Assembly: GCA_020059605.1 (NCBI GenBank)
Contig: JAGVBT010000044.1
Coordinates: forward strand, 42,554 to 106,553
Source: Deltaproteobacteria bacterium
GTDB lineage: Bacteria; Desulfobacterota; BSN033; UBA1163
Reading direction: 5' to 3'
DNA length: 64,000 nucleotides
Position 1 is the first letter of the stretch. Every line of letters begins with the position of its first letter. A model generated the notes under the pieces. That model was not told the DNA's origin and did not search any database. It worked only from the letters and a program-made list of their open reading frames with translations. The position numbers and the translations under genes are program-made. Positions 6,835 to 56,016 of the stretch are shown one piece after another.

Positions 6835-7020
6835 TGCGTTCAGGCAGGTTTTCTGGCTTACGGATCATCCTAATCCCTGCCCCTTCCCATCCTTCGACCC
6901 TTCGATAAACTCAGGGCTCAGGACAGTGGTTGCCGGCAGGTTTCGTCCCCGATTACAGCGGCGTGGCCGTCCCCGATTTCCACGGGGTTCCCTTATTCTG
7001 GCTTGGCGCCACCTGAACGC
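6835..7020 (-). promoter_or_regulatory. Cobalamin (B12) riboswitch aptamer
   Basis: The minus-strand RNA reads GCGUUCAGGUGGCGCCAAGCCAGAAUAAGGGAACCCCGUGGAAAUCGGGGACGGCCACGCCGCUGUAAUCGGGG...CCACUGUCCUG...GGGAAGGGGCAGGG...AGCCAGAAAACCUGCCUGAACGC. This carries the conserved GGUG, AAGGGAA, GUGGAAAUC, CCGCUGUAA, CCACUG, GGGAAGG and B12-box GCCAGnnnACCUGCC elements. A 9-bp P1 stem (GCGUUCAGG/CCUGAACGC) closes the aptamer. Confidence 0.9.
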
Positions 7021-7155
7021 AGATCAATTGTTTATAAATTACCATAATATTCGGCTTAATGTCAAATTTATTGAGTTTACATTTAGCCTAAAATATTGTA
7101 GAAGGAAGATAATTGCAGGTTTTTTAGGGATGGCTTCACGGGAGAAGGAGGGCAT

Positions 7156-8124: not shown

Positions 8125-8175
8125 GTGAAAACCGATGAGTTCTAAATTAAAAGGAAATAATCAAAAATTAAAAAC

Positions 8176-8204
8176 TCCGAACTCCGAACTCCGAACTCCG
8201 AACT
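8176..8204. repeat. Tandem heptamer (CCGAACT) x4
   Basis: CTCCGAACTCCGAACTCCGAACTCCGAACTT lies between hemB and the radical SAM gene. In the track ORF it translates as PNSELRTPNSELRTPNF. Confidence 0.9.
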
Positions 8205-8215
8205 TTCAACTGCGG

Positions 8216-11382: not shown

Positions 11383-11465
11383 GAGATAAAAGGTATAGGG
11401 CGTCACATCGTCTTTCAGACGACCATAAGACTACGCGGCCATATGACTATTAGACGATAACGTTT

Positions 11466-22400: not shown

Positions 22401-25400
22401 TTATTTGAGTTTAAAATCAACGCGGCTATCTTTCAGCTTTTCCTTCTTTGCCGGTGTAAGAGATTTTGGTTCAAGGATGAATATTCTCTCGGGTTCAACC
22501 GGCCCGGATGTTACGATGGCCTCCTTGACTTTCATGGCCCGCTGGGAAGCGAGGGCCCGCAGGTCACTCTCCCTGATCTCCAAATGCGTCAGAATCAACT
22601 TTTCCATTTCCGGGGCGGGGATGTCTTTGGCTATTCCCAGAATATTTCTCGGTTTTGGAAATTTCTCTTCCTTATAGGCCATCTTCAAATATTTTTCGTA
22701 TTCCTGTTTTTCGATTTTCACCTCATCCACTGGAATAGGAGGCTGTCCTTTCTTGACCATCTCTTTCAGTTTCTGGGCCTTCAATTTTCTGTCGAATAAA
22801 TACTGTTTCAACCATTCCCTGTCTTTCTCCGGATCCACATAACCCTCAATATCCATCTTGAGTTGAGGTCGATTGAGCAGAGCCTTTGCTATGGTCTCAA
22901 GTTTTTTAACACTCGGCTCGGTGAGGGTGGCGCTTCCGTATTCAAACTCCACGAAACTCAGTTCTTCTCCTCCTCCGATGATCGCCCCGAGGAGTGAAAA
23001 GGGCGAGGTGGCGGCCTTCGCTATCAGATTGATGAGGATCTTCAGGATGATTCCCCAAACGCTGAATTTCGGGTCATCCAGGCTTCCGGTGACCGGGATG
23101 TCCAGTTTGATTTCTCCTTTTCGATCCTTCAAAAGGGAGATGGCAAGTTTGACAGGCAACTTGGTCGCATGAGGGCTTTCCACCTTCTCTCCCAGGTTGA
23201 ACTGGTCAATGAAGATTTGATTCTGGGATTCGAGCTTTCTCTGTTTGATCAAATATTTCAAGTCGAATGAGAGCTTTCCCTTCTCGACGGTGTACCCGAC
23301 ATATTTCCCCGCATAAGGGGTCGTCGGACTGAGTTCCATATCCTTAAATCTCGCTTTCAGATCCACATAAAGGTCTTCTTTCAACGGATTGATCTTGCCG
23401 GTAATTTCGAGAGGGGCATAATCATCGAGTTTTGCACGAAGCTCCAAATCCGCCAGAGTGGTTTCCTCGGAAGAAAGACCGGAGATTCGTCCCCCGATCT
23501 CGGTCAGCTTTGCCGAATAATCGGGTTGAATGGATCGGTCTGAGAAGTCAACCCTCCCTCCCTGCAGGGTGATTGTTTCAATCTTGATCGTACTGGGGGG
23601 GTCTGCTGTTTTCTTCCCGGGCGAAGAAGGGGGGGCGCTTTCTTTGGAGGGACGTGTTTCTTGTTTTTTTTCTTCTTTCCCGATGAGTTGCTGGACATTG
23701 AGCAGGCCGTCCGGGTGGATGATCACTTGGGCATAGAAATCGCTTAATGAAATTCCTTTGATGTCCAATAAAAATGGATCGGAGTCGAAACGGAGATCAT
23801 CCAATGCCAGGGATTCCACTTTCAGGAAATCGGTGGCATGCTGTTTGTCAATGGAAGCAAAATGGGTCAGGGAGGCTTTCCCACGGTAGGTGGACTTAAG
23901 CTCTTTTTTATCTGAAAATTCCAGAGCAAGATTACCGTTGGTCGAAACGGCGCCACCGGTGACGTTCACCTTCACTCTGTCCGTAAAGTAGGCCTGAAGG
24001 GGCTTGATGCCAATCTCTTTCAAGCTCACTTTCAAATTTGCGGAGAGAGGGTTGATTCCGACCGCTCCCTCAGTTGAAATCGTGCCCTTTTGGTTGAACC
24101 GGAAGGAAAGGGCGGCATTTCCCTTTTGGCCTTTGGCTGTTGAGAAACGTTCGGCTCTTAGCCGCAATTCATCCATCACCAGCGCCACCGGCTCGGCGGG
24201 GGTTAGATCTTCACCGTTGATCGTATAATCATCCACTGAAACCTTTCCCACTTTGATCAGCCATGGTTTTTTTTCCGTTTTCTCCTGTACGGGTGCGAGC
24301 TTTTCCGCTGTTTTTTCTTCCTTTTTTTCACTTTCTGGGAAAAGGGACTGGAGGTTGATTTTCCCATCTTTAAAGCGACGGACGGAGAGTGTCCCTTTTT
24401 GAGTTGAAACATCCCCGACAGCAACCTCTTTTTGATTCAGATCCAATCCGGTGTTGTTGATCGTCAGCAGGGGAATATCCGCGAAGGCTTCCTCTTCATC
24501 CCTTTTTTTTAATTTCAAGCCTTTGAATGAGGCCGAAAGACCCGAGAGCTTGGTGATAATGTCTTTCCCTGTTTTTCGGTATTGATAGTTGGTAAAAAAG
24601 TCGAGGTCTCCCCCATCGATATTGAAGAGGATGCTATCCTGATAGTAAGGGGCGTATTTATTTAAGACGATACGTTTGATCTCTAAGGAGCCTTCGATTC
24701 TCAAAGGGTCAAGGCCAATCGTGTTTTGGGTGGAAAGGACGCTTGTCTGGTCCAGCAGGAATGAAAGGGATAATTTCCCAAGGGCATTTTGGGCAGTGGA
24801 TATATTTTCACCCTTGAGGGTAATCTTTTCTCCGATCAGGACAGTGGGTTGTTGGGGGGCTTGGTCTCTCATGTTGACTGCATATTGATCAACGGAGATT
24901 TTTCTCAGGGCCACCACCCATTTTTTTTCTTCTCCCTTCCCTTTGCTCTGCACAGGAGACGATTTCTCAGGGGGAGAAGGAGGGAAGAGCTTCATCAAAT
25001 CGAGGTCCCCGTTTTTTAAGCGGGTTAAGGTCAGCACCCCCTTTTCCGTTGAGAAGGTCCCGATCGTCACTTGTGTCTGGGTCACATCCACGAGGGTATC
25101 TTTGACCGAAAGAAGAGGTATTTTAAGGAAATCTTCTTTTTCCTCCGGCCTTTTAAGCCTTAAGGAATTCAAAAGGACGGACATTGCCGACAAAGAAATT
25201 TCAGGTTCTTTCTCTCCCCTGGCATATTTGTAACGGGTTGAGAAGTCCAAGCGACCTTCCTCAAGGGTAAAAAGAATTTGATCCTGATAATAGGGTGAAT
25301 ATTTCATCAGAGGGATAGACCTGATCTCCAAATTGCCCTCTGCCCACAAAGGCTCTACGGAAAGCTCGCCCTCCACTTTGATATTTTCCTTGGCCTCAGA

Positions 25401-26645
25401 CGCAATGGAAAGGGAATAGTTAGTTTTTTTGCCTTTGCCGTTGCTGAAAGGAGCAACCCTTAATTCAATGGGGGCCAGGGTCGTCTTAAAAGGTTTCTTT
25501 GTTGACAAATCCGAAAATGAGACCTTTCCGCCAATCAACTGCACCTCATCAATATCAAGGGATAGGGTGGCCTGATCTTCCTTTTTTTCGGCCGCGGGGG
25601 GAGGCTGGGTTTCTTTCTTTTTAGGGAGTAACGATTCAATGTTCAAAGCTCCTTCCGGATTTCGCCTTACGTTAAGTTCGGGAGACTGAAGGGAGACCCT
25701 TGACAGATGAAAGACCATCTTGAGGGGTTCTGTCGGGGCAATTTCGATTTCAAGCAGAGGAAGCCTGAATAAAGGATTTTTCTTACCATCGTCCAGTGCC
25801 ACTTTTTTCAAGGAGACATTTCCTGTCATAGTCAAGGTAGGCTGTTCCTCTTTAGGCTGGATAAACGAAACCTTTGTCTGGACATCAAGAAAGGCGGAGA
25901 CGATCTTGAAATTTAATTTAACAGGAAGGTAGGCCAGGTAATGGGGGATATCCAGGTTCTGAATATGGATGTCAAAAACTGTCTCGAGGGTGTCGCGAAA
26001 AGGTTTTGTATTCCCTTCAAGCCGATAAGGGGTTTCGTTAATCTTGGCGAAAAAGGTGGGTTGAACAAAGATGTCAATATGAGAGGGAATATTGGATAAG
26101 AAAGGAACCCCGATATTCAACTCTTTTACAGTATGCTTGGTCTGTTTGGGACCATCCCAAAAATCGATGCTTCCGCTTTCGATAATGATGTTATTAAGGG
26201 AGAACCGGAGAGGTTTTGGTTTTTCCGTCGGCTTCTCCGGCGGGTGGGTCTCCTTTTTTTCGAGCAGGTCATCAAAATTATAGGACCCGTCTTCATCGCG
26301 ATGGATTCTGATGTAAGGCTGTTTTAACCTGATCTCTTTAAGAATGAGCGCCATTCTCAGGGCGGAAAGGCTCTGGAGGTTTAAGAAAAGCTCATCGAAG
26401 GATAAAAAAGGTTCCGGACGTCCGTGGTCCTTCACCTGAAATCCTCTGATGGTTAAAGAAAGGGTATAGGGGTTTGCCTTGATTTGAGTGATCGCCACCT
26501 CGCGATGGAGGTTTTCCGAAAGTTTCTTGGTCAAGATCGATTTGAGAATTGGGGGAAGGATCAAAAAACCGAAGAGGGTATAGACCGCTAAAGAAATGAT
26601 GACCCAGACGATCGTCTTTTTCAACCGTTTCATATATCCCCCCAC
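22401..26645 (-). CDS. DUF748/AsmA-like giant envelope protein (1414 aa)
   Basis: An N-terminal TM anchor, a long beta-rich body and an internal duplication (...[27 protein letters not shown]... versus ...[27 protein letters not shown]...) are typical of the AsmA/TamB-like lipid-transfer superfamily. Confidence 0.6.
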
Positions 26646-30920: not shown

Positions 30921-31050
30921 ACCATCCATTGGAATGATGGAATGTTGGAAAAATGGAATAATGGGTTGCAGGAAATAAAGGACTATATCGATGTTTTTTC
31001 TATTAAACCCATCATTCCAATATTCCATTATTCCACCATTCCAGTCCATT
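30921..31050. repeat. AT-rich TGGAAT/ATTCCA word repeats forming an imperfect palindrome
   Basis: CCATTGGAATGATGGAATGTTGGAAAAATGGAATAATGGG ... CCCATCATTCCAATATTCCATTATTCCACCATTCCAGTCCATTG lies in the priA/paaK-like intergenic region. Confidence 0.8.
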
Positions 31051-31062
31051 GAGGAGATCATG

Positions 31063-32340
31063 ATGATCGATCGGAGACATGGCTATTACAATGAAGGTCA
31101 GGAGACGATGTCAAAGGAGAAGAGGGAAGCCTATCAGGGGGAGAAGCTCTCTGAAATCCTGATGCATGGGTATCGCCATTCAAAGGCGATCCGCTCGGGG
31201 TTTGAAAGGGTGGGGTTAAAACCCGACGCAATACGAGATTTGAAAGATCTGGAGAAACTCCCCATCACCAAAAAGCCCGATCTGGTGAACGCCCAGAAGG
31301 ACACCCTTCCCTTTGGAGGGTTCGAGGTTCTTCCAGAGGAAGGCGTTCGAAGAATCTACGTTTCACCCGGACCGGTTTATGAACCCGGGGAATGGGATTA
31401 TGAAGATTTTCGCTGGGCGCAAGCCCTCTTTGCCTGCGGGATAAGAAGAGGCGATATCGCTCTCAACACCTTCAACTACCATCTCACGCCCCTGGCCCTC
31501 ATGCTGGACGAATCGCTCCGGATGCTCAAGGCCACGGTCGTCCCTGCGGGTCCCGGAAATATCTCGATGCAGATCAACCTGATGAGGCAGCTCCGGGCCA
31601 CAGCCTATATCGGGACCCCCAGTTTTCTCATGGCGATCATTGAGGCAGCGGAGGGAATGCATCTTGATCTGAAGAAGGATCTTCATCTGCAGGCCACCTT
31701 TGTCGGCGCGGAGATGTTTCCGGAATCGCTCCGTCAAAAGCTCGAGTCCAAGCTCGCTCTCCTCGTCCGGCAGGGCTATGGCACGGTGGATGTGGGCTGC
31801 CTTGGATTTGAATGCCCTGAGATGAAGGGGATGCACATTCCCGAGGATGTGATCGTGGAAATCGTCGATACGGAGACCGGAAAGGAGCTCGAGATCGGGG
31901 CGACCGGGGAGATCGTAGCCACCAATTTCAGCAAAGTCTTCCCGATGCTTCGCTTTGCCACAGGAGACCTCTCCTACCTGATCGAAGAACCCTGCGCCTG
32001 TGGCCGGACCTCGATGCGCCTTGGAAAAATCATGGGGCGGACGGACCAGGTGACCAAGGTCTGGGGAATCTTCATCCATCCTTGGCAGGTGGATGAGCTC
32101 ATGGCCAGGTTTCCGGTCATCGCCAACTACCAGGTGGTGGTGACGAGAAAAGATTACAAAGATGAGATGGCGATTTACATCGAATTGAAAGAGGAGATTG
32201 GGGATAAGATCGACCTGAAGAGGAGGCTGGAGAAAGAGGTCCGTGAAACCCTTAAGGTGATCTCCGATGTGATCTTTACCGCCAAGGGAGGAATTCCGGA
32301 CCGGGCCAAAAAGATTGATGACCGGCGGATCTGGGAGTAA
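31063..32340 (+). CDS. Phenylacetate-CoA ligase family protein (PaaK-like adenylate-forming enzyme)
   Basis: The PaaK-like AMP-binding core (...FNYHLTPLALM..., ...ATGDLSY...) is present. The start is placed at the second ATG, 6 nt after GAGGAG. Confidence 0.75.
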   Translation: MIDRRHGYYNEGQETMSKEKREAYQGEKLSEILMHGYRHSKAIRSGFERVGLKPDAIRDLKDLEKLPITKKPDLVNAQKDTLPFGGFEVLPEEGVRRIYVSPGPVYEPGEWDYEDFRWAQALFACGIRRGDIALNTFNYHLTPLALMLDESLRMLKATVVPAGPGNISMQINLMRQLRATAYIGTPSFLMAIIEAAEGMHLDLKKDLHLQATFVGAEMFPESLRQKLESKLALLVRQGYGTVDVGCLGFECPEMKGMHIPEDVIVEIVDTETGKELEIGATGEIVATNFSKVFPMLRFATGDLSYLIEEPCACGRTSMRLGKIMGRTDQVTKVWGIFIHPWQVDELMARFPVIANYQVVVTRKDYKDEMAIYIELKEEIGDKIDLKRRLEKEVRETLKVISDVIFTAKGGIPDRAKKIDDRRIWE

Positions 32341-32846
32341 TGGGGAACGAAGTTAAAATCAAAGTGGGGGGCATCATGGCGGCTACCGGTCTGTCGACGG
32401 TGAGCATCCTTTCGTTGCCCGACCGGCCCGATGTCCCGGGGATGGTCCTCCATGCAATGGGGGGCCATACGATCAATATCGAATTTGTCGTCCACAATAT
32501 CGATATCGACGGAAATGGAAATATGACCTTCTGTATCGACCAGAAGAATCTGGAGGCGGCCCTCGAGGTGTTAGAAGGGGTCAAGCCCCTGATCGACGCA
32601 AAAGGAATCTCATACCACCCCAATGTGGCCACGGTCAGCGTTTTCGGCCCCCACTTCAGGGAGAGGCCGATGATCTCCGGCCTGATGTTCAGTGCCCTGG
32701 GGACGGCCGGGATCAATGTCATGGCGATCAGCACCTCGATCTCCAGTTGCTCCTGTGTGATCGAGGCCAATCAGATCGAGGATGCCATGAGGGTCTTACA
32801 CGAAACCTTTGAGGCCCCCCATCAAGTTACCAAGTTTGCACCCTGA
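32340..32846 (+). CDS. Tandem ACT-domain protein
   Basis: 168 aa with two ACT-like ligand-binding repeats. There is a TAATG overlap with the ligase gene, the common PaaK-ACT pairing. Confidence 0.7.
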   Translation: MGNEVKIKVGGIMAATGLSTVSILSLPDRPDVPGMVLHAMGGHTINIEFVVHNIDIDGNGNMTFCIDQKNLEAALEVLEGVKPLIDAKGISYHPNVATVSVFGPHFRERPMISGLMFSALGTAGINVMAISTSISSCSCVIEANQIEDAMRVLHETFEAPHQVTKFAP

Positions 32847-42475: not shown

Positions 42476-45400
42476 TCACAAAGGCTGAGCCAATACTTTC
42501 TCGTACTTCTCGACCCAGCCGTCGGCGCCGCATTCTTTGAGAATCTCTATGGCCTTGCCGAGATTCTCCTGGGCTTTTAATCTATCCCCTTTTCGTTTAA
42601 ACAACTCTGCATAAAGAGCATAATCATTTCCCAGGTGGAACATCGTTCGATTTCTCTGATCGGCTTCAATGGCCTTCTGAATCCAATACTCTGCTTCAGA
42701 TAAGTGCTGGTCATCAATGTTAAGCAGAATCTCTCCGATAAGTCTTTGCATCCCACCTTCGGCTGCCTTTACTTTATTGTTTCGTGAATGCACATACAAA
42801 GATTCCAAATCCACACCCTTTTCTTTATTCATCACTTTCGATCTTGCTATAGCAACTCTTCCCCACCCCACCCAGGAAGGCCATAAACGATTGCGCTCGA
42901 AAGCCGAAATCCCTTTTTCGAAACGTTCTTTAGAGCCCTGGAAATTTCCCATTTCAAAATAGGTATCTCCCAGGTGATATTGGTTTCCCGCATCCCAGCC
43001 AGAAATATTAATCTTTTCACAAAATTCGAACCCCTTCAGCAGGTATTTTTCAGCTTCTTCAAGCAATCCTTTCCCATAGCAGGAAGTTCCGTGACTTGAA
43101 TATGCTATTGCCTTTGAATAAATATCACCGCTCTCTTCAGCAATCTGGAGGCCTTCATTCGAAGTCTTGAATTGCAGATCTATTCTCCCATGGTACCAAT
43201 GAGAAAAATAGGCCAAATTACTCATCGTTACCGCAATGCCCCAAAAATTTTTTGCTGCCACATTAATATCAATAGCTCTTTGTGAAAATTTAATTGCTCT
43301 TTCAAATTCGCAGTTCGCCCCTAAAGCATATCCAAACCAGCTACTTGCTAAAACTAAACTAACAATATCTTTTATCTCTTCCGATATTTTTAGGGCTTCC
43401 TCAAATGCTTTAAATGCCTCTGGATAATTTTCTTCTCCAGACCAATAGTATGTTCCGAGAATCATGTATATGTGAGAAAGTCTCCTTTTATAATCACGTT
43501 TGATGGCCAAATCAATAATTGGATCTATGGCTTCTTTGGCCTCAACAAAATGGTTCATTTGAGCGATATAAAGTCCAAGAACCGTCCTGGCATCGACAAT
43601 CTGTTTTTCAATATTCGCTGCCTGGGTTAATCGCTCAAGAGATGCTATTCTCGTCTTTGCATAAGCAATCGCATCATTAAACGAAGCTGTCTTCTCGGCC
43701 CTCCTGCTTGCCAACCTCGAATACTCAGCGCATTTTGAATAATTCTCACTCAAGAGGTAGTGTCCGGATAATACTTCATAACATTCACTTAAATTATCCT
43801 TGTAAAGTTCCTCGATATTGTTCCCAATCTCCTCATGAAGTTTCTTCTTCCTTTTGGCCAAGATGGAATTATAAACCACCTCACGAGTTAAAGCGTGTTT
43901 GAAGACATAATTCGATTGAGGGTATATGCCTCTTTCATAAAGAAGTTCTGAGTCTTTAAGGATAGAAAGGTAAGAGAGCAGGTCTTTTTCTGGGAGGCCC
44001 ATAATGCGGTTTATCAATGGATAACTAAACTCTCTCTCAATGACAGACCCGCTTTGGAGCACCTCTTTTGCCCTCTCAGGTAAGGAATCTACTCTTGCCA
44101 TAATCACATCCTGGAGTGTTAAAGGAATGGTCAGCTCATGGATATCTTTTGATAAACGAAATTTGTTATCTTCTCTCTCTATGATTCTTAATTCTCTCAG
44201 GGACTGTATAAACTCTTCAATGAAAAAAGGGACTCCTTCTGTCTTCTCCAGGATCAATTCCTCAAGTGATTTTTCAATCTCTTTTGTCCCTAAAATATGG
44301 GTTGCCATCTCAAGGCTCTCCCTATTCGAGAGCCGATGCAACGTTAATTGATTGTGATAAGACTTTGCGCCCCAGGTGTGTAAAAACTCAGGCCGGTAGG
44401 TAAATATTAATAACACCCTTGCTCCCGGGATGCTCTCCAAATTGTTTCTTAATACGTCCTCTGAACTCTTATCCAGCCAGTGCAGGTCTTCAAATGCCAT
44501 CACCAGAGGCCGTATCTCAGACCCTCTAAGAATGATCCGTTTTATTGATTCAATAATCCTATCTTTCTTTGATTCAGGGCTCATGGAAATCTGTTCGATC
44601 CCACTATCCTTGACTGAGAGAAGCTCAAGGAGATATGGGAGAGTCGAGGCTTCATCGACTCCTATTAATCTCAACCCTCTTGTGACTTTTTCTTTGATTT
44701 CCTGGTCCCCTTCTCCTTCATGAATATCGAAGTTTGACTTCAGGATGTCTATCACCGGGTGATAAGCTACCCCCCTGCTGTAGGAGAGGCATTTCCCTTC
44801 CAAAAAGGTTACATTTTCGTTGACTATTGCCTTCCTGAATTCATACAAAAGCCTCGATTTACCACAACCGGCCTCAGATACAATAGAAAACGCCTGGCCC
44901 TTTCCTGATTTGGCTCTCGTAAATCCATCGAGCAGAAGCTCAAGCTCACGTTCCCTTCCAACAAAGGGAGTCAGCCCGCGCTCAGCACTGACATCAAATC
45001 TTGTCCTTCTCGTGCTGGGAGCGATCACCTGAAAAACCTTTATGGGTTCTTCCTTGCCCTTAACATTTTTTTTCCCCAAAGCCTCAAACCTAAAAAACCC
45101 CTCCGTGAGTTTGAAGGTATCTTCGGTCACATAGGTTGTTCCTGGTTCTGCCAAGCCTTCCATTCGGGATGATAGATTCACCGTATCTCCAACCGCCTTG
45201 AACTCAACCCGAAGATCATTACCCAAGCTACCCACCACCACAGGACCTGTGTGAATACCAATACGCATCTTAATTGGCGTTATTCTGCTTTCGATTTTGA
45301 GCTGATCGCTGAACTTGCTCATCTCCCGATGGATGGTTAATGCAGATCGAATTGCACGCTGTGGAGCGTCCTCCAGAGCAATCGGCGCCCCAAAAAGAGC

Positions 45401-45844
45401 CACAATCCCATCACCGGTTAATTCGTTGACAGTCCCTTCATAATCATGGACCTTGTGGATGAGGATTTCGTAAACCTGATCCATCATGGAGTAAGCTTCC
45501 TCAGGACCGAGCTTTTCGGTAAGTCCCGTATACCCCTCCATGTCACAGAACATCACCGTGACCTGTTTGCGTTCACCTTCAATTCGGTCGCGTTGAGATA
45601 AGATTTTTTCGGTTAGACCCCCGGGAAGGTATTTTTGAATCTTGGCTATCTTCTCATCAAAGGAAAGTTCTCTGGTGAGCGGTTTTGAAGGAAGGGTTAA
45701 GTCGTGGCCACACTCACCACAGAATTTGAATTGAGGAGGGTTTGAAGAATTGCAATGGGGACAGATCTTTTCTAATTTGGCACCACACTCCCCACAAAAC
45801 TTCAAGTTTTCGGGATTTTCAGTCTGACATTTTGGGCATTTCAC
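42476..45844 (-). CDS. Multidomain signalling protein: double zinc ribbon, class III adenylate/guanylate cyclase, STAND-type AAA ATPase and TPR repeats
   Basis: The N-terminal CPKCQ...CGECG / CPHCN...CGECG is a double zinc ribbon. The cyclase core has [10 protein letters not shown]...[11 protein letters not shown]...[10 protein letters not shown]. The Walker A is [11 protein letters not shown]. The C-terminal roughly 450 aa are TPR-like. The gene is AT-rich. Confidence 0.8.
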
Positions 45845-45983: not shown

Positions 45984-47378
45984 TCATCGATTAGCATCTG
46001 TTCCATGAGCAGGCATACCCAAAAACTCACCCGTGATGCGTAGCACAGCATCCGCATCACCAAAGAAAGGCATATGAATACTTCCTTCTAATGGAACGAA
46101 GCGAGAGTTTGGAATCAAAGATGCCATCTCCCTCCCAAGATGGAATGGCATAGCCTTGCAACCCTTACGATGAATCACCAATGTAGGAACATGTAATCTG
46201 GGGAGAAGGTCTGTCACATCAAGGTCATATGTAAGATCTAACAATTTTGCAGCCATTTCTGCAGTAGCTGCCTCACGCTGTAAACGGATAACCCATTTGA
46301 GGGTAGAAACATCAGCGCCGGGTAAGAACATATCAGCCAAGGCCTTAGAACCAACTCCCCAGGCAGAACGAATCAGGGATGTAAAAGACTCCTTGAATTC
46401 CTTTGTAGTTATTGCCTCACCATTAGCATAAGAATCGAATAAGATTAAATGTGAAACACGTCTTGGATACTTAATTGCATAAGCGATGGCAACAGGACCA
46501 CCACAAGAAAATCCACACAATGCGAAACGTTTGAGCTTAAGATGGTCAATAACAGCCTCCAATGACCGAACCTCCGACTCTAATGTAAATTCTGTTCTGT
46601 TCCGTTCAGAAAGGCCACAGCCGTGTCTATCGTAAAGTACAAAGGTTTGATTACGAGTTCCTTTCTCTAAGTATTCACGTGTAAATGGATGTTCCCATTG
46701 TAACTGTAAATGACTGACCCATGCCGGAGGAAAAACCAAAAATGGTCCTTGGCCTACCACGGAGTAAGCGATGCGGACTCCATCAACGGTAGTGCAGAAT
46801 TGAATATGCTGGTCTATCACCTCCGCTGGAGAAAAAGTTCCACGCCCTATCAATACTCGATAAACCCTCACCGGCTTTGCAATATTCTTAACCGTTTGTT
46901 CGCCAAGATTCTCATAGCTTAACCCAAGTTTACCCTCAACTTGATCATAAGCTGTTCCTGAGATGCAGATCCCTCCGCCATTGGCCAGGCTCTGAACCCG
47001 AGCGGTGACATTGACTCCGTCACCGTAGATCCGCTCCCCTTCCTCAACAACATCTCCAAGATTGATCCCGATTCGAAATTCCATCCTGCTCTTTTCAGGT
47101 AGCTCAGCATTCTTTAGTTTGAGTTCCTTTTGGATTTCCACTGCACATTGCACAGCCTCTACGACACTAACAAATTCAGCTAAAAGATTATCTCCAGGGG
47201 AATCTACGACGCGCCCTTTGTGCTGTCTGATGAAGTTGGCCATGATTTCTCTATAAGTGGTTAGAGTCCGGATGGTCTCAATTTCATTCTCCTCCATGAG
47301 GCGGCTGTAACCTTTAACATCTGCACTGAAAATGGCAGCAAGCTTACGTTTAACCTCTTGGCTGTTCATGAAATTCAC
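45984..47378 (-). CDS. Class III adenylate/guanylate cyclase fused to an alpha/beta hydrolase domain
   Basis: The cyclase core has FSADVKGYSRLM...GDNLLAEF...RIGINLGDVV. The hydrolase part has GFSCGG (GxSxG) and downstream catalytic residues. Confidence 0.75.
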   Translation of the reverse strand: MNFMNSQEVKRKLAAIFSADVKGYSRLMEENEIETIRTLTTYREIMANFIRQHKGRVVDSPGDNLLAEFVSVVEAVQCAVEIQKELKLKNAELPEKSRMEFRIGINLGDVVEEGERIYGDGVNVTARVQSLANGGGICISGTAYDQVEGKLGLSYENLGEQTVKNIAKPVRVYRVLIGRGTFSPAEVIDQHIQFCTTVDGVRIAYSVVGQGPFLVFPPAWVSHLQLQWEHPFTREYLEKGTRNQTFVLYDRHGCGLSERNRTEFTLESEVRSLEAVIDHLKLKRFALCGFSCGGPVAIAYAIKYPRRVSHLILFDSYANGEAITTKEFKESFTSLIRSAWGVGSKALADMFLPGADVSTLKWVIRLQREAATAEMAAKLLDLTYDLDVTDLLPRLHVPTLVIHRKGCKAMPFHLGREMASLIPNSRFVPLEGSIHMPFFGDADAVLRITGEFLGMPAHGTDANR

Positions 47379-49049: not shown

Positions 49050-49283
49050 TTAATCGACAATCACATTCGTCTGGGTCCTTAAAACGCCCGAAAGCCCCTG
49101 GATTTTGGTGACGATGAAATCGCCAAGGATATTGATATCCGGTGCCTCCACCAGAGCGATCACGTCATAGGGACCCGTTGTTGCATTCGCCCGCTTCACT
49201 CCCTGGATCTTGGTGGCCTCTCTGGCCACATCCCTGGCAGTCCCTGCGGTGCATTCAATAAAAACATAAGCAGAGATCGGCAT
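49050..49283 (-). CDS. Lrp/AsnC-type standalone ligand-binding (RAM) domain protein
   Basis: 77 aa with the ...VFIECTAG...VKRANATTGPYDVIALVEAPD... fold pattern. Confidence 0.6.
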   Translation of the reverse strand: MPISAYVFIECTAGTARDVAREATKIQGVKRANATTGPYDVIALVEAPDINILGDFIVTKIQGLSGVLRTQTNVIVD

Positions 49284-49424: not shown

Positions 49425-50261
49425 TTATTTTAGCTTCTCCAATTCTTTTTGGTCGATGTGGAAACTGTGCTGGTCTGCCGGAAACTTTTCCTTAAACACT
49501 TCCTCCCTGTAGGTTTCGAAGGCATTGAGAATCACTTCGCTCAGGTTGACATACCGTTTGGCAAACCTGGGCGTGAAGCGATCGAAGAGGCCGAGCATGT
49601 CGTGGACGACCAAAACTTGTCCGTCGCAATGGACCCCGGCGCCGATTCCGATCGTTGGAACGGTCAGCCGCTCGGTTACCCTCTTCGCAATCGGGGCGGG
49701 AACGGCCTCGAGAAGGACGCAAAACGCACCGGCGTCTTCCAGTAAAAGGGCGTCATCGATTATTTTTTGAGCGGCCTGGGCATCCTTTCCCTGGACCTTG
49801 AATCCTCCGAGCATGGAAATCGTTTGGGGAGTCAAGCCGATATGACCCATCACCGGAATGCCTGCTTTCACAATGGCCCTGACAATATCCCTGACGCTTG
49901 CCCCGCCCTCTAACTTCACAGCATCGGCCTTTGCCTCTTTCATAAACCGACCGGCGTTGAGGATCGCATCCCGCTCCGAGGTGTTATATGACATGAAAGG
50001 CATATCGCCAAGGATGAGGGCATACTTGGCCCCCCGGGCCACCGCCTTCGCATGGTGGATCATCTCTTCCATGGTGACAGGAATCGTATTCTCATAACCC
50101 AGGACCGTCATTCCCAGGGAATCCCCGACCAGGATGATTTCAATCCCCGCCCGGTCTTCGAGCAGGGCCATGGGATAGTCATAGGCCGTGAGCATCGTGA
50201 TCTTTTTCCCTTCTTTCTTCATCGCCTGGATATCGACAGGAGTTATTTTTTTACGGTCCAT
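49425..50261 (-). CDS. panB: 3-methyl-2-oxobutanoate hydroxymethyltransferase
   Basis: 278 aa. ...LTAYDYPMA...VGDSLGM...VKLEGG... is the PanB signature. Confidence 0.9.
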   Translation of the reverse strand: MDRKKITPVDIQAMKKEGKKITMLTAYDYPMALLEDRAGIEIILVGDSLGMTVLGYENTIPVTMEEMIHHAKAVARGAKYALILGDMPFMSYNTSERDAILNAGRFMKEAKADAVKLEGGASVRDIVRAIVKAGIPVMGHIGLTPQTISMLGGFKVQGKDAQAAQKIIDDALLLEDAGAFCVLLEAVPAPIAKRVTERLTVPTIGIGAGVHCDGQVLVVHDMLGLFDRFTPRFAKRYVNLSEVILNAFETYREEVFKEKFPADQHSFHIDQKELEKLK

Positions 50262-50366: not shown

Positions 50367-51287
50367 TTAGCCTTGATGGAACCCTTTTTCTATGACTTTG
50401 ATCAAATCCGTGATCATCAGGTTATAGGGCACGGAGATGCCTAAACGTTTTGCTTCTTTCACCACTGCGCCGTTGATGGCATCGATCTCGGTTTTTCGTT
50501 TGTAGTCAAGGTCCTGCCCCATGGAGCAGCGGTTTTCCCGGGTCGCTTCGACCACCGCTTTCACCCTATCCATTGGGTTTCCCTCGATACGAATTCCTTT
50601 TTTTTTGGCTATTTCGATGGCTTCATTGACAAGGGCTTCCATCAATCTTAATGTTTCGGGATGATCTAAAAGTTGGCCGTTCTTAAATTCAAGAAGGGCG
50701 GCCAGGGCATTGATACCAACATTGACCAAGAGTTTCTCCCAGACAAGGTCATGGATACGGAAGGAGACATCTGTTTCAATCTCAACCTTACGAAACATTT
50801 GAGCTACCCGGTTTAGTCGATCCGTGATCTTCCCGTCCAGTTCGCCCACAGAGGTTTTGCCCCATCCGGCATGGCGAATACTTCCGGGTCCCAATAAGGT
50901 TGCTCCCTGCCCCGTAACCCCCAGAATCACCTTTTTCCGATCCACCTGCTTACAAATGATCTCTTCGTTCCCAAGACCGTTCTGGAGGGTGAGAAAAAGG
51001 GTATCCTCTTTTTCGAGGACCAAAGAGTCCTTGACGGCCTTTTCCGTGTGATAGGTTTTAACAAAATAGAGGACGAGGTCTGCTTTTCCTATGGACCGGG
51101 CATCCGTGGCGGCATTGACAGAAATGTTCCGTGTCTCTCCTTTCTCCTCGATGGCAAGACCTTTTGAGCGAATGGCATCGATATGTTCTTTCCAGACATC
51201 CACCAGCCAGACCTCCTCTCCCGATAGAGTGAGGTGACCTCCAAAAAGACTTCCCATCGCTCCAGCCCCGATGATAACTGTCTTCAT
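50367..51287 (-). CDS. panE: 2-dehydropantoate 2-reductase
   Basis: The Rossmann motif IIGAGAMGS and the ApbA C-domain are present. It is in an operon with panB. Confidence 0.85.
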   Translation of the reverse strand: MKTVIIGAGAMGSLFGGHLTLSGEEVWLVDVWKEHIDAIRSKGLAIEEKGETRNISVNAATDARSIGKADLVLYFVKTYHTEKAVKDSLVLEKEDTLFLTLQNGLGNEEIICKQVDRKKVILGVTGQGATLLGPGSIRHAGWGKTSVGELDGKITDRLNRVAQMFRKVEIETDVSFRIHDLVWEKLLVNVGINALAALLEFKNGQLLDHPETLRLMEALVNEAIEIAKKKGIRIEGNPMDRVKAVVEATRENRCSMGQDLDYKRKTEIDAINGAVVKEAKRLGISVPYNLMITDLIKVIEKGFHQG

Positions 51288-51458: not shown

Positions 51459-52007
51459 ATGATTGAGATCCGGTTTCATGGAAGGGGGGGACAGGGAGCG
51501 GTGGTGGCTTCCAAGGTGTTGGCCGTTGCCTTTTTTCATGAAGGGCTCTATGTCCAATCTTTTCCTGCCTTTGGAGTGGAGAGGCGCGGGGCGCCTGTGA
51601 TGGCCTTCTTGCGGTTGGATAAGGAGCCCATCCTATTAAGGGTGAACATCTATAAACCCGATCACATCATCGTTTTAGATCCCACCCTGATCAGAGCCGT
51701 GGATGTCACCTCCGGCCTGAAACCCAACGGATGGATTCTGATCAATTCAGGTCATTCTCCTGAAACATTTAATGATCTGAAGGATTTTAGAATCGCCACC
51801 GTCGATGCAACCTCCATTGCAATCCGAAATGGTTTGGGTTCCCGAACAAACCCGATTGTCAATACAGCCATCTTAGGAGCCTTCTCAAAGGCGAGTGGGC
51901 TGGTGGGAATTGATTCCATTGCCCTGTCGATCCGTGAAGAGACTCCCGGAAAGAAGAATGAGAATGCCAAGGCAGCAAGAGAAGCGTATGAGGAAGTGAA
52001 ATTCTGA
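51459..52007 (+). CDS. 2-oxoacid:ferredoxin oxidoreductase, gamma subunit
   Basis: [19 protein letters not shown]...[14 protein letters not shown] is the gamma-subunit motif. The RBS GGGAGAAGAAG is present. Confidence 0.85.
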
Positions 52008-52106
52008 GGAATGTCAAATGTCAAAATCCAAATACCAAATGAATGTCAAATTTCAAAAATAGGAATTTTGATATTTGAGCTTTGGATTTGATTTGACATT
52101 TGAACT
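52008..52106. repeat. AT-rich TGTCAAAT/CCAAAT word repeats forming a long imperfect palindrome
   Basis: GAATGTCAAATGTCAAAATCCAAATACCAAATGAATGTCAAATTTC ... TTTGGATTTGATTTGACATTTGAACTTTGTCATTTGGCATTGACAT lies between the gamma-subunit gene and the fused oxidoreductase gene. Confidence 0.8.
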
Positions 52107-52157
52107 TTGTCATTTGGCATTGACATCTGTCAGATCAATCAGGGACAAGAGGAGAGG

Positions 52158-53903
52158 ATGTCCAAACAATTCCAATTCAAGAGTGTTTCTGAGATGCCCA
52201 TGATCTCTGTTTCGCTGGGGGATATGGAATGGAACAAAACGGGGGCATGGAGAACGCAGCGCCCTTTTTATGAAGATAAGACCCCTCCGTGCAGTGCGGC
52301 CTGTCCGGCAGGAAATGATATCGTTGCATTCATCCAAAAAATTGCAAAGGGAGATTTTGAGGGAGCCTGGAATATCATCAAGGAGGAGAACCCCTTTCCA
52401 GGAGTCTGCGGCAGAGTCTGTTTTCATCCCTGCGAGTCAAAATGTAACCGGGGATCCTTCGATGAACCCATTGCGATTCATGCTCTGGAGAGGTTTGTAG
52501 CGGGCTTTGGTTCCCGCCTGAGCAAGAACACCGGAAAGTCCGGAGAGAAAAGGAAGGAGAAGGTTGCCATTATCGGCTCCGGGCCAGCCGGGATGAGCTG
52601 CGCCTATCATCTTGCAAGGCTCCATCACGATGTGACGGTCTTCGAATCCTTACCCCTTGCAGGCGGCATGCTCAGGATGGGCATTCCCTCCTACCGGTTG
52701 CCCAGGGAGGTCCTGGACAGAGAACTCTCAGGGATTGAAGCCCTGGGAGTAAAAATCCAAACAGGGGTTGCTCTGGGGGAGGATGTAAGGTTAGAGGACT
52801 TGAAGAACTATCGGGCCATCTTCATCAGCACAGGGGCTCACCGGAGCAGAGGTCTTCAGATTCCAGGAGAAAAAGAGAAGGGTATCCTGGGTGGTCTTGA
52901 TCTGCTGAAGAGGATGAACCTGGGCAAAAGAATGAAGCTGGGCGACAAGATTGCCATCATCGGCGGGGGAAATACGGCGATCGATGTGGCCCGGTCAGTG
53001 ATCCGGCTCGGTAAAAAAGCAACGATTCTCTATCGTCGTTCAAGGGAGGAGATGCCGGCCTTTGCAGAAGAGATTACGGAGGCTCTCGAAGAGGGGGTAA
53101 AGATCAGATATCTGGTCAATCCCATCCGCCTTCAACAGAAAGATGGTCTTAAACGATTGGAGTGCCTCCGCATGGAGCTGGGGGAGCAGGATGAGAGTGG
53201 CCGGAGAAAGCCGGTTCCCATCCCCAATTCCAATCTCCGCATCGATGTGGATCATGTGATCGTTGCGGCAGGAGAGGAGATCGAAGCCTCCTTTCTTCCG
53301 GAGGGGTTGGAGAAGAAAGAGGGGATCGTTCTCACCCGGAGAGACGCAAGCACCGGCATCAAAGGGGTCTTTGCCGGAGGAGATCTCACCTCCACCCAGC
53401 GAACTGTAGCCCATGCCATTGGTTCGGGCAAGAAAGCTGCAATGGCGATCGATGCCTTCCTGGAGGGGAAGGATACGGAAGAGGCGATTGTTCAACATCT
53501 GGTAGGAGAGGGCCCATCCCTCTCCATCTTTAGATATCTCCATCCGGGGGAGAGGCCCAGGAATCCTCATATCGTACCTTTTGAAGAATTGAATATGGAC
53601 TACTTCGAACTTGCGAAAAGACAGGAAGAATCGAAAAGGAGGGTGAAGGAGAGAATCAGGGACTTCAATGAGGTCACCTCCACCCTTACCGAGGACGCTG
53701 TCCTCGAGGAGGCCGGGCGGTGTTTCGGTTGCGGGACCTGTAATGAATGTGAGAATTGTTATGTCTTCTGCCCCGATGTCTCCATCTTAAAGTCAGGGGG
53801 AATCCTCTCCCATCAGGTCGATTATGATTATTGTAAGGGCTGTGGCATCTGTTTCACCGAATGTCCTCGGGGCGCCATCTCTCTAAAAGAGGAGGCTAAA
53901 TGA
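52158..53903 (+). CDS. GltD/SudA-like NAD(P)H-dependent FAD oxidoreductase fused to a C-terminal PorD-type 2x[4Fe-4S] ferredoxin domain
   Basis: The N-terminal Cys cluster region is CSAACPAGNDI...CGRVCFHPCESKCNRG. The FAD/NAD GxGxxG motifs (IIGSGPAG, IIGGGNTA) are present. The C-terminal CFGCGTCNECENCYVFCPD...CKGCGICFTECP is PorD-like. It sits in the slot where a delta subunit normally lies. Confidence 0.7.
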   Translation: MSKQFQFKSVSEMPMISVSLGDMEWNKTGAWRTQRPFYEDKTPPCSAACPAGNDIVAFIQKIAKGDFEGAWNIIKEENPFPGVCGRVCFHPCESKCNRGSFDEPIAIHALERFVAGFGSRLSKNTGKSGEKRKEKVAIIGSGPAGMSCAYHLARLHHDVTVFESLPLAGGMLRMGIPSYRLPREVLDRELSGIEALGVKIQTGVALGEDVRLEDLKNYRAIFISTGAHRSRGLQIPGEKEKGILGGLDLLKRMNLGKRMKLGDKIAIIGGGNTAIDVARSVIRLGKKATILYRRSREEMPAFAEEITEALEEGVKIRYLVNPIRLQQKDGLKRLECLRMELGEQDESGRRKPVPIPNSNLRIDVDHVIVAAGEEIEASFLPEGLEKKEGIVLTRRDASTGIKGVFAGGDLTSTQRTVAHAIGSGKKAAMAIDAFLEGKDTEEAIVQHLVGEGPSLSIFRYLHPGERPRNPHIVPFEELNMDYFELAKRQEESKRRVKERIRDFNEVTSTLTEDAVLEEAGRCFGCGTCNECENCYVFCPDVSILKSGGILSHQVDYDYCKGCGICFTECPRGAISLKEEAK

Positions 53904-55054
53904 AGAGGGTCATCACAGGAAACCAGGCAGTGGCCTACGGCGTCATCTTGAGCCGTGTGGATGTCATCTCCGCATACCCCATCACACCCCAGACGACGAT
54001 TGTGGAAGAGCTTTCAGAACTGATTGCAAGCGGCCGCCTGAAGACAAAATTCCTGAAGGTAGAATCAGAACATTCCGCCATGGCCGCACTGATCGGAGCC
54101 TCCACCGGAGGGGTTAGAACCTTTACGGCTACATCCTCTCATGGATTAGCCTATATGCATGAGATGCTCCACTGGGCTTCCGGAGCGAGGCTTCCCATTG
54201 TTCTGGTCAATGTCAATCGGGCCCTTGGCGCACCTTGGAATATATGGGGCGATCAGAGTGATTCTCTCTCCCAGCGGGATACGGGATGGATTCAACTCTA
54301 TTGCGAAAATAATCAGGAGGTCCTCGATACCATTGTTCAGGCTTATCTGATCGCAGAAACGGTGAGACTTCCTGTGATGGTTGTCCTCGATGCTTTTGTC
54401 CTTTCCCACACCGCTGAGGCTGTTGAAATTCCAAGCATCGAGGAGGTGGACTCCATCTTGCCGCCTTTCTGTCCGGATTATCCGATCGACACCCAGGAAC
54501 CGAGAGCCTATTCCGTGATCACCACCCCTGATTATTTTTTGGAGTTTCGTTACAAGGTCCAGAAGGCCATGGAGCAGGTCCCAGAGGTTGCCAAGAAGGT
54601 GGATGATGAATTCAAAGCCCGGTTTGGCCGGGGTTATGGAGCGATTGAAAGATATGGAAAAGAAGGGGCCAAAGTGTTGTTGATGACCTCTGGAACGGTC
54701 ACCAGCACGTCAAGAACAGTGATCAAGAAGCTGGTGGAGAAAGGTTTAAGCGTTGCCGGAATCAAGATCAAACGGTTCAGACCCTTTCCCTCCGAAGAGA
54801 TTTGCGAAGCGATTCAGGGGGCAAAGAAGATCGCTGTCATCGACCGGAACCTTTCTGCCGGAGTGGGTGGCATCTTTGCACAGGAGTTAAGAGCCTCTTT
54901 GTATTCTCGGGAGGAGAGGCCTCCTGTCTTCGGATTCGTTTCCGGATTGGGTGGACGAGATATTACTCCGGAACTGATCGAAGAAGCGATTCAATATACA
55001 ATGGAGCACCCTCAGCCCGAAGGAGATATTGTGTGGCTAGGACTGAAAAGATAA
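53900..55054 (+). CDS. 2-oxoacid:ferredoxin oxidoreductase, alpha subunit
   Basis: 384 aa with the PorA/VorA-like domains I and II. It overlaps the upstream stop by 4 nt. Confidence 0.85.
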   Translation: MKRVITGNQAVAYGVILSRVDVISAYPITPQTTIVEELSELIASGRLKTKFLKVESEHSAMAALIGASTGGVRTFTATSSHGLAYMHEMLHWASGARLPIVLVNVNRALGAPWNIWGDQSDSLSQRDTGWIQLYCENNQEVLDTIVQAYLIAETVRLPVMVVLDAFVLSHTAEAVEIPSIEEVDSILPPFCPDYPIDTQEPRAYSVITTPDYFLEFRYKVQKAMEQVPEVAKKVDDEFKARFGRGYGAIERYGKEGAKVLLMTSGTVTSTSRTVIKKLVEKGLSVAGIKIKRFRPFPSEEICEAIQGAKKIAVIDRNLSAGVGGIFAQELRASLYSREERPPVFGFVSGLGGRDITPELIEEAIQYTMEHPQPEGDIVWLGLKR

Positions 55055-55059
55055 ATTTC

Positions 55060-55125
55060 TAAATTCGAATTTCGAAATTGTTTCGAGTTTCGATATTCGG
55101 ATTTCGGATTTTAGAGATCCCAAAA
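55060..55125. repeat. AT-rich TTTCGA/TTCGGA word repeats including the perfect palindrome AATTTCGAAATT
   Basis: TTCTAAATTCGAATTTCGAAATTGTTTCGAGTTTCGATATTCGGATTTCGGATTTTAGAG lies between the alpha and beta subunit genes. Confidence 0.8.
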
Positions 55126-55137
55126 AATGAGGCTTAG

Positions 55138-56016
55138 ATGAATAAAGTAAAGGTCCCTATTGCGGAGAATCTTGGTCATGGTCATCTGGCCTGTGCTGGA
55201 TGCGGGGCTGCGGTTGCCATGCGGTTAACATTGAAGGCCCTCGGTGAGAAGACAGTCATGGTCTTTCCTGCCTCGTGCTGGTCAATTGTCCCCGGATTCT
55301 GGCCCTATTCCAGTTACAAGATTACAGCTGTCCATGCCGGGTTTGTCACAGGAGCTGCGACTGCGTCAGGAGTCAGGGCCGCCCTGGATGTTCGAGGGGA
55401 CGATGAAACCCTGGTGGCGGTGTGGGCGGGAGATGGTGGGACTTTTGATATTGGGCTTCAGGCTCTCTCCGGCGCAGCGGAGAGAAATGAAGATTTGCTC
55501 TATATCTGTAATGATAATGAAGGGTATATGAATACAGGCACTCAGAGAAGTTCAGCCACACCGCTTCTTGCCTGGACAACGACCACTCCGGTGATGCAGC
55601 CCAAAGAGAATCCAAAGAAAGATATTATGGCCATCATGGCTGACCACCATATTCCCTATGCGGCAACAGCAACGATCGCCTACCCGGAAGACCTCATCCG
55701 AAAACTGGAGAAAGCAAGAAGCATCCGTGGAACTCGGTTCATCCATCTTTTCTCTCCTTGTCCGCCGGGATGGAAGATGCCCTCCGAACAGACCATCAAA
55801 ATTTCGAGGCTTGCCGTCCGCTCAAGGATCTTTCCCCTTTATGAGATTGAGAATGGAAGATTCTATACGATTCAGGAAGAAACCCGTGTTGTCTCTGTGA
55901 AAGAGTATTTAAAAATCCAGGGTCGATTCAGCCACCTCACTGAAAAAGATATCGAGATGACTCAAAGAAATACGGACGATGCCTGGGAACGCCTTCAGAG
56001 AAAAGCCCGTTGCTGA
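55138..56016 (+). CDS. 2-oxoacid:ferredoxin oxidoreductase, beta subunit (TPP-binding)
   Basis: The Cys ligands of the proximal cluster (CAGCG...C) and the TPP motif GDGG...NN are present. Confidence 0.85.
   Translation: MNKVKVPIAENLGHGHLACAGCGAAVAMRLTLKALGEKTVMVFPASCWSIVPGFWPYSSYKITAVHAGFVTGAATASGVRAALDVRGDDETLVAVWAGDGGTFDIGLQALSGAAERNEDLLYICNDNEGYMNTGTQRSSATPLLAWTTTTPVMQPKENPKKDIMAIMADHHIPYAATATIAYPEDLIRKLEKARSIRGTRFIHLFSPCPPGWKMPSEQTIKISRLAVRSRIFPLYEIENGRFYTIQEETRVVSVKEYLKIQGRFSHLTEKDIEMTQRNTDDAWERLQRKARC

Follow-up and report, generated by a model that had tools for sequence, protein, structure and literature searches.

The stretch analysed here is a window of 64,000 nucleotides from a Deltaproteobacteria bacterium (contig JAGVBT010000044.1). 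It harbors an operon of four genes, all on the plus strand, coding for the gamma subunit of a 2-oxoacid oxidoreductase, a flavoprotein of 581 amino acids (aa), and the alpha and beta subunits of the same oxidoreductase (Table 1). The delta subunit is present only as residues 527-579 of the flavoprotein (residues are numbered on the 581-aa product) and not as a separate small subunit with two [4Fe-4S] clusters. An enzyme of this design probably hands its electrons directly over to nicotinamide adenine dinucleotide phosphate (NADP+) instead of free ferredoxin. The gene order had been proposed in a sequence-only reading of this DNA and is borne out by the coordinates of the four open reading frames (ORFs) as well as by Pfam and NCBIfam scans. 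The start of the gamma gene, ATG at 51459, agrees with the N-termini of its homologues. The likely start of the fusion gene is the ATG at 52158, just preceded by AGGAGAGG, which gives the 581-aa product; its stop codon overlaps with the start of the alpha gene by four bases (ATGA).

Table 1. Features of the operon and of its surroundings in the 64,000-nucleotide window.
Feature	Position	Strand	Evidence or remark
Gamma subunit, PorC/VorC type, 182 aa	51459-52007	+	PF01558 2.4e-38 (Pfam); TIGR02175 PorC_KorC 213.9 bits, cutoff 81.1 (NCBIfam)
Imperfect palindrome in the gamma/fusion spacer	52010-52121	+	arms of 51 nt, 75% complementary; RNA fold -41.6 kcal/mol, z -3.9
Fusion protein, 581 aa: NfnB/GltD-like NADP(H) flavoprotein with PorD-type delta domain	52158-53903	+	NF009410/PRK12771 583.9 bits, cutoff 516
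N-terminal Fe-S domain (aa 41-115 of the fusion)	52278-52502	+	PF14691 Fer4_20 4.9e-27
FAD- and NADP(H)-binding domains (aa 130-440 of the fusion; YRR at aa 292-294)	52545-53477	+	PF07992 Pyr_redox_2 2.9e-34, aa 135-424
Linker (aa 441-520, ~80 aa), ending in C522-x2-C525	53478-53732	+	homology to the N-terminal segment of GltD/NfnL
PorD-type 2x[4Fe-4S] delta domain (aa 527-579)	53736-53894	+	NF040684 PorD_Arch 2.2e-19; TIGR02179 2.5e-15; 9bt4_G 1e-11
Alpha subunit, 384 aa	53900-55054	+	PF01855 7.4e-77; PF17147 3.1e-23; 9bt4_B 6.3e-90
Beta subunit, 292 aa, TPP site and four Cys for one [4Fe-4S] cluster	55138-56016	+	PF02775 1e-16
PaaK-like ligase	30991-32340		19 kb upstream of the operon
ACT protein	32340-32846		19 kb upstream of the operon
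panB, 3-methyl-2-oxobutanoate hydroxymethyltransferase	49425-50261	-	above NCBIfam cutoff; divergent from the operon
panE, 2-dehydropantoate 2-reductase	50367-51287	-	NCBIfam; divergent from the operon

On the domain content of its alpha, beta and gamma subunits, all of which carry the expected domains, the operon is assigned to the pyruvate/2-ketoisovalerate family of 2-oxoacid oxidoreductases. The translation of beta displays the thiamine pyrophosphate (TPP) motif GDGG...NDNEGYMNTG and the cluster cysteines in CAGC, ASCW and SPCPPGW. The best solved relative of alpha is the alpha chain of pyruvate:ferredoxin oxidoreductase (PFOR; 9bt4_B). Within the family the NCBIfam scores lie below the cutoffs of the individual models: alpha reaches 473 with PorA_Arch, its best model (cutoff 550), and 418 with VorA (646), beta 400.9 with NF008818 of the Vor-beta subfamily (405) and 359.2 with PorB NF008819 (405), and gamma 217.4 with the POR/VOR equivalog (225). 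Pyruvate and a branched-chain 2-oxoacid are therefore both candidate substrates.

The fusion protein matches model NF009410, which carries only the name 'NAD(P)-binding protein', from end to end (aa 25-579 on model positions 30-565 of 566). In Pfam it is composed of PF14691, PF07992 and a Fer4 dicluster at aa 527-575. Two dinucleotide-binding motifs had been predicted, and both were located, IIGSGPAG at aa 138-145 and IIGGGNTAID at aa 267-276. The earlier suggestion that the delta subunit forms the C-terminus of an NfnB/GltD/SudA-like flavoprotein also holds: the last 53 residues align to PorD models, which give the top NCBIfam scores for the C-terminal dicluster ahead of generic ferredoxins (TIGR02179 at 56.3 bits stays under its cutoff of 60.05), and they match the solved PorD chain of Methanosarcina PFOR (9bt4_G). 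The cysteines of this domain are C528, C531, C534 and C538P, followed by C559, C562, C565 and C569P. A separate porD gene, which would contradict the suggestion, was looked for with a six-frame CxxCxxCxxxCP expression over the 64 kb; only two sites were returned, both within the fusion ORF, so that the window contains no free porD of this signature. The protein is not a glutamate synthase subunit by its scores, which are far under the cutoffs of the GltD models (209.9 against 447.7 for TIGR01317, 244.2 against 482.95 for TIGR01318), and no gltB is adjacent to the operon among the window ORFs and the neighbours scanned with NCBIfam.

It might be supposed that a gltD-like gene was joined to porD only by a misassembly or a frameshift. 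This can be regarded as already refuted: there is a curated full-length model for the architecture, 95 full-length homologues with 37-86% identity share an invariant junction, and a database protein of 567 aa (P0001) is identical to the fusion protein from residue 15 onwards.

The architecture is by no means restricted to this contig. More than 7,800 homologues came out of a word-indexed search; the best 120 all have the same domains and a length of 566-598 aa, and JGI often labels them '2-oxoacid:acceptor oxidoreductase delta subunit' or 'NADPH-dependent glutamate synthase beta subunit-like oxidoreductase'. Among 1.84 billion cluster representatives 4,968 matches were found below 1e-30, and about 100 of the best 150 representatives at 50% identity are full-length (545-610 aa) with the same architecture. 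The survey of the GltD-PorD fusion called for by the sequence-only reading thus shows it to be common. In 37 genome loci, with identity down to 41%, alpha comes directly after the fusion gene, with beta behind it wherever the contig reaches far enough; in 30 of them gamma lies directly upstream. The taxa comprise Thermodesulfobacteriota (Syntrophaceae, Syntrophorhabdus, Syntrophobacterales and, among the homologues of the word-indexed search, Desulfatiglandales and Desulfobacteraceae), Deferribacteres and Acidobacteriota; one Methanomicrobia contig is also among the matches. A gamma-fusion-alpha-beta operon with delta fused to a flavoprotein is a design widespread in uncultured anaerobes. As for single loci, the called beta of L081 (6001-9509) has just 228 aa, and in the L082/L018/L019 clade a HisC-like aminotransferase gene lies 3' of beta, with Rnf genes next to it in L082 (operon region 6001-13358).

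Natural fusions go further than the one described here. The flavoprotein with its ferredoxin domain is preceded by gamma in P0206, P0220 and P0233 (730-760 aa), by a beta-type TPP-binding domain in P0247 (991 aa) and by alpha plus beta in P0256 (1131 aa, 19 cluster members). In P0238 (1108 aa) the N-terminus resembles an indolepyruvate oxidoreductase as judged by eye. NAD(P)H modules have therefore been joined to several oxidoreductase types.

The ligands of the iron-sulfur (Fe-S) clusters were assigned by aligning the fusion to NfnB of T. maritima (4ylf_B) and NfnL of P. furiosus (5jca_L), with the roles of the residues taken from the literature (PMC7596348), and their conservation was read from the alignment of the 95 homologues. 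Residues C49, C88, C92 and E111 map onto the ligands of the NfnB proximal cluster, and C45 and C96 onto two of the four ligands of its distal cluster; the aligned NfnB counterparts are C47, C51, C90, C96, C100 and E117. These N-terminal ligands are kept in 94-95 of the 95 sequences (E111 in 94), and R180 of the IPxYRLP motif is likewise kept in 94. The Y292-R293-R294 triplet maps onto the YRR motif of NfnB, which binds the 2'-phosphate of NADP(H) there and marks NADP types (PMC7596348). The motif is found in 80-82 of the 95 family members and suggests that the present protein uses NADP(H) and not NAD(H). About 15% of the family members are without YRR (e.g. C/L/E, with Glu at the third position), which suggests that they may be NAD(H)-specific, as in the case of DsrL-1 versus DsrL-2.

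The remaining two ligands of the distal cluster (C39 and C42 of NfnB) have no counterpart at the N-terminus of the fusion protein, which does not contain any Cys upstream of C45; the same holds for 87 of the 95 relatives within 20 residues before this position. A pair of cysteines, C522 and C525 (RCxxCG), is invariant in all 95 sequences and directly precedes C528-x2-C531-x2-C534-x3-C538-P, and it appears to replace the absent pair. The region around it (aa ~486-534) matches the beginnings of GltD-type proteins: positions 8-58 of TIGR01317 and 6-54 of TIGR01318, PRK13984 and PRK12769 as well, and the N-termini of NfnL 5jca_L (11-57), GltD 6s6s_G (12-77) and 5vj7_A (8-57). The N-terminus of the fusion begins matching TIGR01317 and TIGR01318 only at model positions 48-49. 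The two matches are therefore complementary, as in a circular permutation. Twelve further NfnB-like proteins with a C-terminal extension were inspected (P0238-P0323). All of them lack the N-terminal pair and carry 'EAxRCxxC' after a linker of ~90 aa instead; one of them, P0305, terminates right after RCLRC. It is possible that a split or permuted Fe-S domain is general for the NfnA/StnC/DsrL-like branch.

In total 16 invariant or near-invariant ligands are available, the number required for four [4Fe-4S] clusters: C45, C49, C88, C92, C96, E111, C522, C525, C528, C531, C534, C538, C559, C562, C565 and C569. They would be grouped as C49/C88/C92/E111 in the proximal cluster, C45/C96/C522/C525 in the distal one, and C528/C531/C534/C569 and C559/C562/C565/C538 in the two predicted clusters of the delta domain. 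Completion of the distal cluster by the returning linker would hold the delta domain two residues away from this cluster.

The structure of the fusion protein was predicted with AlphaFold2. An alignment of 30 close homologues resulted in pLDDT of 68 with unusable Fe-S regions, and the 95-sequence alignment was used instead (pLDDT 91.8, pTM 0.91). The linker and the first Cys block are modelled with high confidence, and therefore a compact arrangement is favoured over a floppy tether. In a Foldseek search of the PDB the top matches are the NADPH-input domains of NfnA/StnC (9bov_A, 8oh5_C and 9n5u_A, TM-score 0.76-0.78 over ~610 columns), followed by NfnL/NfnB (~0.65 over the ~430-residue core) and then by GltD and dihydropyrimidine dehydrogenase. 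The ranking by sequence is the same, with 4.7e-116 for NfnA versus 2.2e-91 for NfnB. The flavin adenine dinucleotide (FAD) of StnC/NfnA is reported to be non-bifurcating and to feed electrons from NADPH into an Fe-S chain (PMC10482914, PMC12018979).

In the reading that we prefer, the operon encodes a non-bifurcating, coenzyme A (CoA)-acylating 2-oxoacid:NADP+ oxidoreductase with its own pyridine-nucleotide port, which needs no free ferredoxin; we would give this reading a probability of roughly 0.6. Electrons would pass from TPP on beta to the [4Fe-4S] cluster of this subunit, then through the two [4Fe-4S] clusters of the delta domain to the distal [4Fe-4S] cluster of the flavoprotein, held by C45 and C96 of the N-terminal domain together with C522 and C525 of the returning linker. 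From there they would reach the Glu-ligated proximal [4Fe-4S] cluster, FAD and finally NADP+. Such a protomer would contain five clusters, with a simple two-step electron transfer at the flavin. We infer from the sequences that the subunits form one complex, that it is specific for NADP(H) and that its flavin chemistry is non-bifurcating. A hard-wired connection between the oxidoreductase and pyridine nucleotides, already put forward in the sequence-only reading, is the most economical interpretation of the translational coupling, of the operon conserved in 37 loci and of the natural fusions to gamma, beta and alpha-beta.

On textbook standard potentials (acyl-CoA + CO2/2-oxoacid about -500 mV, NADP -320 mV), oxidative decarboxylation releases ~35 kJ/mol and is the thermodynamically favoured direction. 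The same values weigh against the proposed mechanism, together with several other points. Passing electrons of -500 mV to NADP+ wastes these ~35 kJ/mol, which is odd in energy-limited syntroph-like bacteria. The proximal cluster possesses the Glu typical of bifurcating NfnB and not the Lys of StnC/NfnA, and the Arg of IPxYRLP is retained too. The distal cluster made of C45, C96, C522 and C525 is proposed on ligand bookkeeping and homology, not on measured distances, and the scores which relate the C-terminal segment to the GltD N-terminus are individually weak (E-values of 0.0065-0.018 against the PDB and of 3e-6 to 1e-4 against NCBIfam). The gamma gene is not adjacent to the fusion in some clades (L016, L018, L019, L081, L082). 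Finally, a literature search covering few subscription journals found no biochemical study of any member of the fusion family.

The rest of the window is housekeeping and signalling DNA according to Pfam scans. The PaaK-like ligase and the ACT protein had been taken as a clue to aryl or branched-chain 2-oxoacid metabolism. This link is rejected because 19 kb of DNA with unrelated genes on both strands separate them from the operon: MFS, SLT, radical-SAM, Pol X and hydrolase genes, two cyclase-domain proteins, an M50 peptidase, panB and panE. The panB and panE genes adjoin the operon, and the substrate of PanB, 3-methyl-2-oxobutanoate, is also that of VOR. A functional link of the pair to the operon was considered and discarded in favour of lineage-specific synteny, since the adjacency is retained only in relatives with at least 72% identity; the neighbours of distant operons are unrelated genes with no shared theme.

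Several other features of the window may be mentioned. Gamma and the fusion gene are separated by ~150 bp of AT-rich DNA, the palindrome of which is made of short CAAAT/ATTTG repeats. Equally stable hairpins of unlike repeats (CGAAAT, CTAAA, CCAAAT) are present in the relatives L001 (~4835-4975), L003 (~4830-4975) and L006 (~1830-1975), and the spacers of L004 and L010 are without such a stable hairpin. The palindrome could be an element of mRNA processing or stability, or a small repeat element. A stand-alone protein of 77 aa (49050-49283, minus strand) has no DNA-binding domain, its match to Lrp/AsnC-type regulators being confined to their C-terminal half, which binds the ligand (RAM; positions 60-133 of the LysM model); it lies beside the M50 peptidase gene in L003, L010, L012 and L014 as well. 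Two adjacent proteins with adenylate/guanylate-cyclase domains are encoded on the minus strand (42476-45844 and 45984-47378) in an AT-richer stretch (GC content 0.42-0.46); one of them, of 1122 aa, also contains zinc ribbons, AAA_16 and TPR, and the other is joined to an alpha/beta hydrolase. An ORF of 1414 aa occupies 22401-26645 on the minus strand.

The same machine with the same wiring may work in the opposite direction, that is, in NADPH-driven reductive carboxylation that turns acetyl-CoA into pyruvate or isobutyryl-CoA into 2-ketoisovalerate, sparing ferredoxin. Such an anabolic role is rather unlikely in our opinion: unless a second reaction drives it, it has to climb ~35 kJ/mol at standard potentials. 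The pull would have to come from high NADPH/NADP+ and CO2 and from rapid removal of the product, which makes the process possible only at extreme metabolite ratios. The known NAD(P)-linked relatives, namely the pyruvate:NADP+ oxidoreductase (PNO) of Euglena and the 2-oxoglutarate:NADP+ oxidoreductase of Azoarcus, run oxidatively, which counts against it as well. It is nevertheless a serious rival as regards the physiological role: the hosts are acetyl-CoA-producing anaerobes from syntroph-like lineages for which reduced ferredoxin is expensive, and the low-potential proximal cluster with its Glu ligand is retained. The HisC-like aminotransferase behind beta in L082, L018 and L019 would fit an anabolic function, as would panB and the NADPH-dependent panE divergently upstream in the window and close relatives, although the limited conservation of the latter pair diminishes its value.

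The glutamate ligand together with R180 also raises the possibility that the flavin is truly bifurcating or confurcating as in NfnB, since E111 is the ligand type of the bifurcating protein and not the Lys of StnC/NfnA (PMC10482914, PMC12018979). The oxidoreductase would then be the low-potential branch, with a high-potential partner (NfnA-like or other) encoded elsewhere, and the net reaction could be, for example, 2-oxoacid + NADH + 2 NADP+ -> acyl-CoA + CO2 + NAD+ + 2 NADPH, or its reverse. Coupling of this kind would escape the energy loss of simple NADP+ reduction. We consider it distinctly improbable, because the unit conserved over the 37 loci is gamma-fusion-alpha-beta only and the fusion is nearer to the non-bifurcating NfnA/StnC than to NfnB by both sequence and fold. 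Moreover, the two genes of NfnAB are adjacent or fused (PMC6405883), and no NfnA-like gene was found in the 43 window ORFs (Pfam), in three neighbours of the operon (NCBIfam) or in the called genes of L081 and L082. The remark in the sequence-only reading that the enzyme is possibly confurcating is therefore left unsupported, all the more so as its nearest relatives are NADPH-input domains with non-bifurcating flavin (PMC10482914). It is even harder to accept that the fusion acts on its own, as a DsrL-like NAD(P)H:acceptor oxidoreductase or a ferredoxin:NADP+ reductase, next to an oxidoreductase that has three subunits or takes its delta from elsewhere. Its architecture is the same as that of DsrL (PMC7596348), and the clades with non-adjacent gamma demonstrate flexibility of the operon, but the C-terminal domain scores best with PorD rather than generic ferredoxin models and no free porD was detected in the 64 kb. 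The ATGA overlap with alpha, the conserved place between gamma and alpha and the covalent fusions to gamma, beta and alpha-beta known in other proteins make this explanation very improbable. On this balance, the non-bifurcating NADP+-reducing oxidoreductase remains the preferred reading.

All the parts are of known kinds: the POR/VOR-type oxidoreductase, the NfnB/GltD module, the domain order of DsrL (PMC7596348) and the idea of an NAD(P)-linked 2-oxoacid oxidoreductase. The fusion family itself is a common, uncharacterised enzyme type. In the literature accessible to us (few subscription journals were covered) no characterisation was found, and the sole mention is in a survey of DsrL, which expressly left out genes linked to subunits of pyruvate/ketoisovalerate:ferredoxin oxidoreductase (PMC7596348); the class was thus seen earlier yet set aside. 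Metabolic reconstructions normally treat these oxidoreductases as ferredoxin-dependent. If the direct coupling to NADP(H) is true, then for uncultured Thermodesulfobacteriota, Deferribacteres, Acidobacteriota and others many such reconstructions assign the wrong electron carrier, and hence the wrong energy balance, to pyruvate or branched-chain 2-oxoacid conversion. The protein would also be a compact case of re-use of the NfnB/GltD module, in which the Fe-S domain is split, the returning linker brings two ligands and a ferredoxin domain is set beside the distal cluster. A possible use is that of a ferredoxin-free, NADP-linked decarboxylase or carboxylase. If the flavin should prove to be bifurcating, energy-limited anaerobes could use NADPH to carboxylate acyl-CoA reductively, or could exploit the entire -500 mV of 2-oxoacid oxidation, in either case without free ferredoxin, and a new class of flavin-based electron bifurcation built directly on a TPP enzyme would be at hand.

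The system is best understood in comparison with its relatives. With the four-subunit POR/VOR of Thermococcales and methanogens (Methanosarcina PFOR 9bt4) it has in common the alpha, beta and gamma subunits, the dicluster fold of delta, the TPP site and the four Cys of the beta cluster. In these enzymes delta is a free subunit of ~85 aa and the acceptor is free ferredoxin. Here, by contrast, delta closes a flavoprotein of 581 aa, the linker of which takes the place of the first ~30 residues of PorD, and NADP+ is the presumed acceptor. With NfnB/NfnL (SudA; matches of 2.2e-91 to 4ylf_B and 3.1e-84 to 5jca_L) the fusion shares the GltD fold, the sites for FAD and NADPH, the YRR motif and two [4Fe-4S] clusters with Glu ligation of the proximal one. 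Unlike NfnB, the fusion has no NfnA partner that could be found adjacent or fused, it possesses an additional linker and PorD domain, and the first two Cys of its distal cluster are apparently supplied after the flavoprotein domain.

The NADPH-input domain of NfnA/StnC from Bfu-type NfnABC/StnABC (9bov, 8oh5, 9n5u) is the nearest relative by sequence and fold, linker included. The fusion differs from it in having neither the NuoG/Fdh-like domain nor NfnB/C partners and in ending after the PorD domain, with the chain leading to the delta part of the oxidoreductase. The proximal ligand is E111 here and a lysine there (K170 in StnC, K165 in Tsi NfnA; PMC10482914, PMC12018979).

DsrL has the same order of domains, namely N-terminal Fe-S, FAD/NAD(P), a linker of ~100 aa and a C-terminal 2x[4Fe-4S] ferredoxin, and in addition a distal cluster with non-standard N-terminal ligands and the YRR motif as the mark of NADP types (PMC7596348). 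Its partner is DsrAB, whereas the fusion described here would serve a TPP oxidoreductase and its gene is placed between gamma and alpha; none of the scanned window ORFs matches a dsr family in Pfam.

The concept of a ferredoxin-type oxidoreductase core with a built-in flavoprotein reducing NAD(P)+ is shared with PadEFGHI, the phenylglyoxylate:NAD+ oxidoreductase. The flavoprotein modules and the wiring are different, and Pad keeps its delta (PadF, 78 positions) as a subunit of its own. Among the matches listed, the Pad models score far under their cutoffs for gamma (PadE, 161.8 of 300), delta (PadF, 33.8 of 150), alpha (PadG, 288.6 of 700) and beta (PadI, 224.9 of 700). The same concept is realized in the 2-oxoglutarate:NADP+ oxidoreductase of Azoarcus and in the PNO of Euglena and Cryptosporidium. 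The flavoprotein modules differ in these enzymes as well, that of PNO being a domain of the P450-reductase type.

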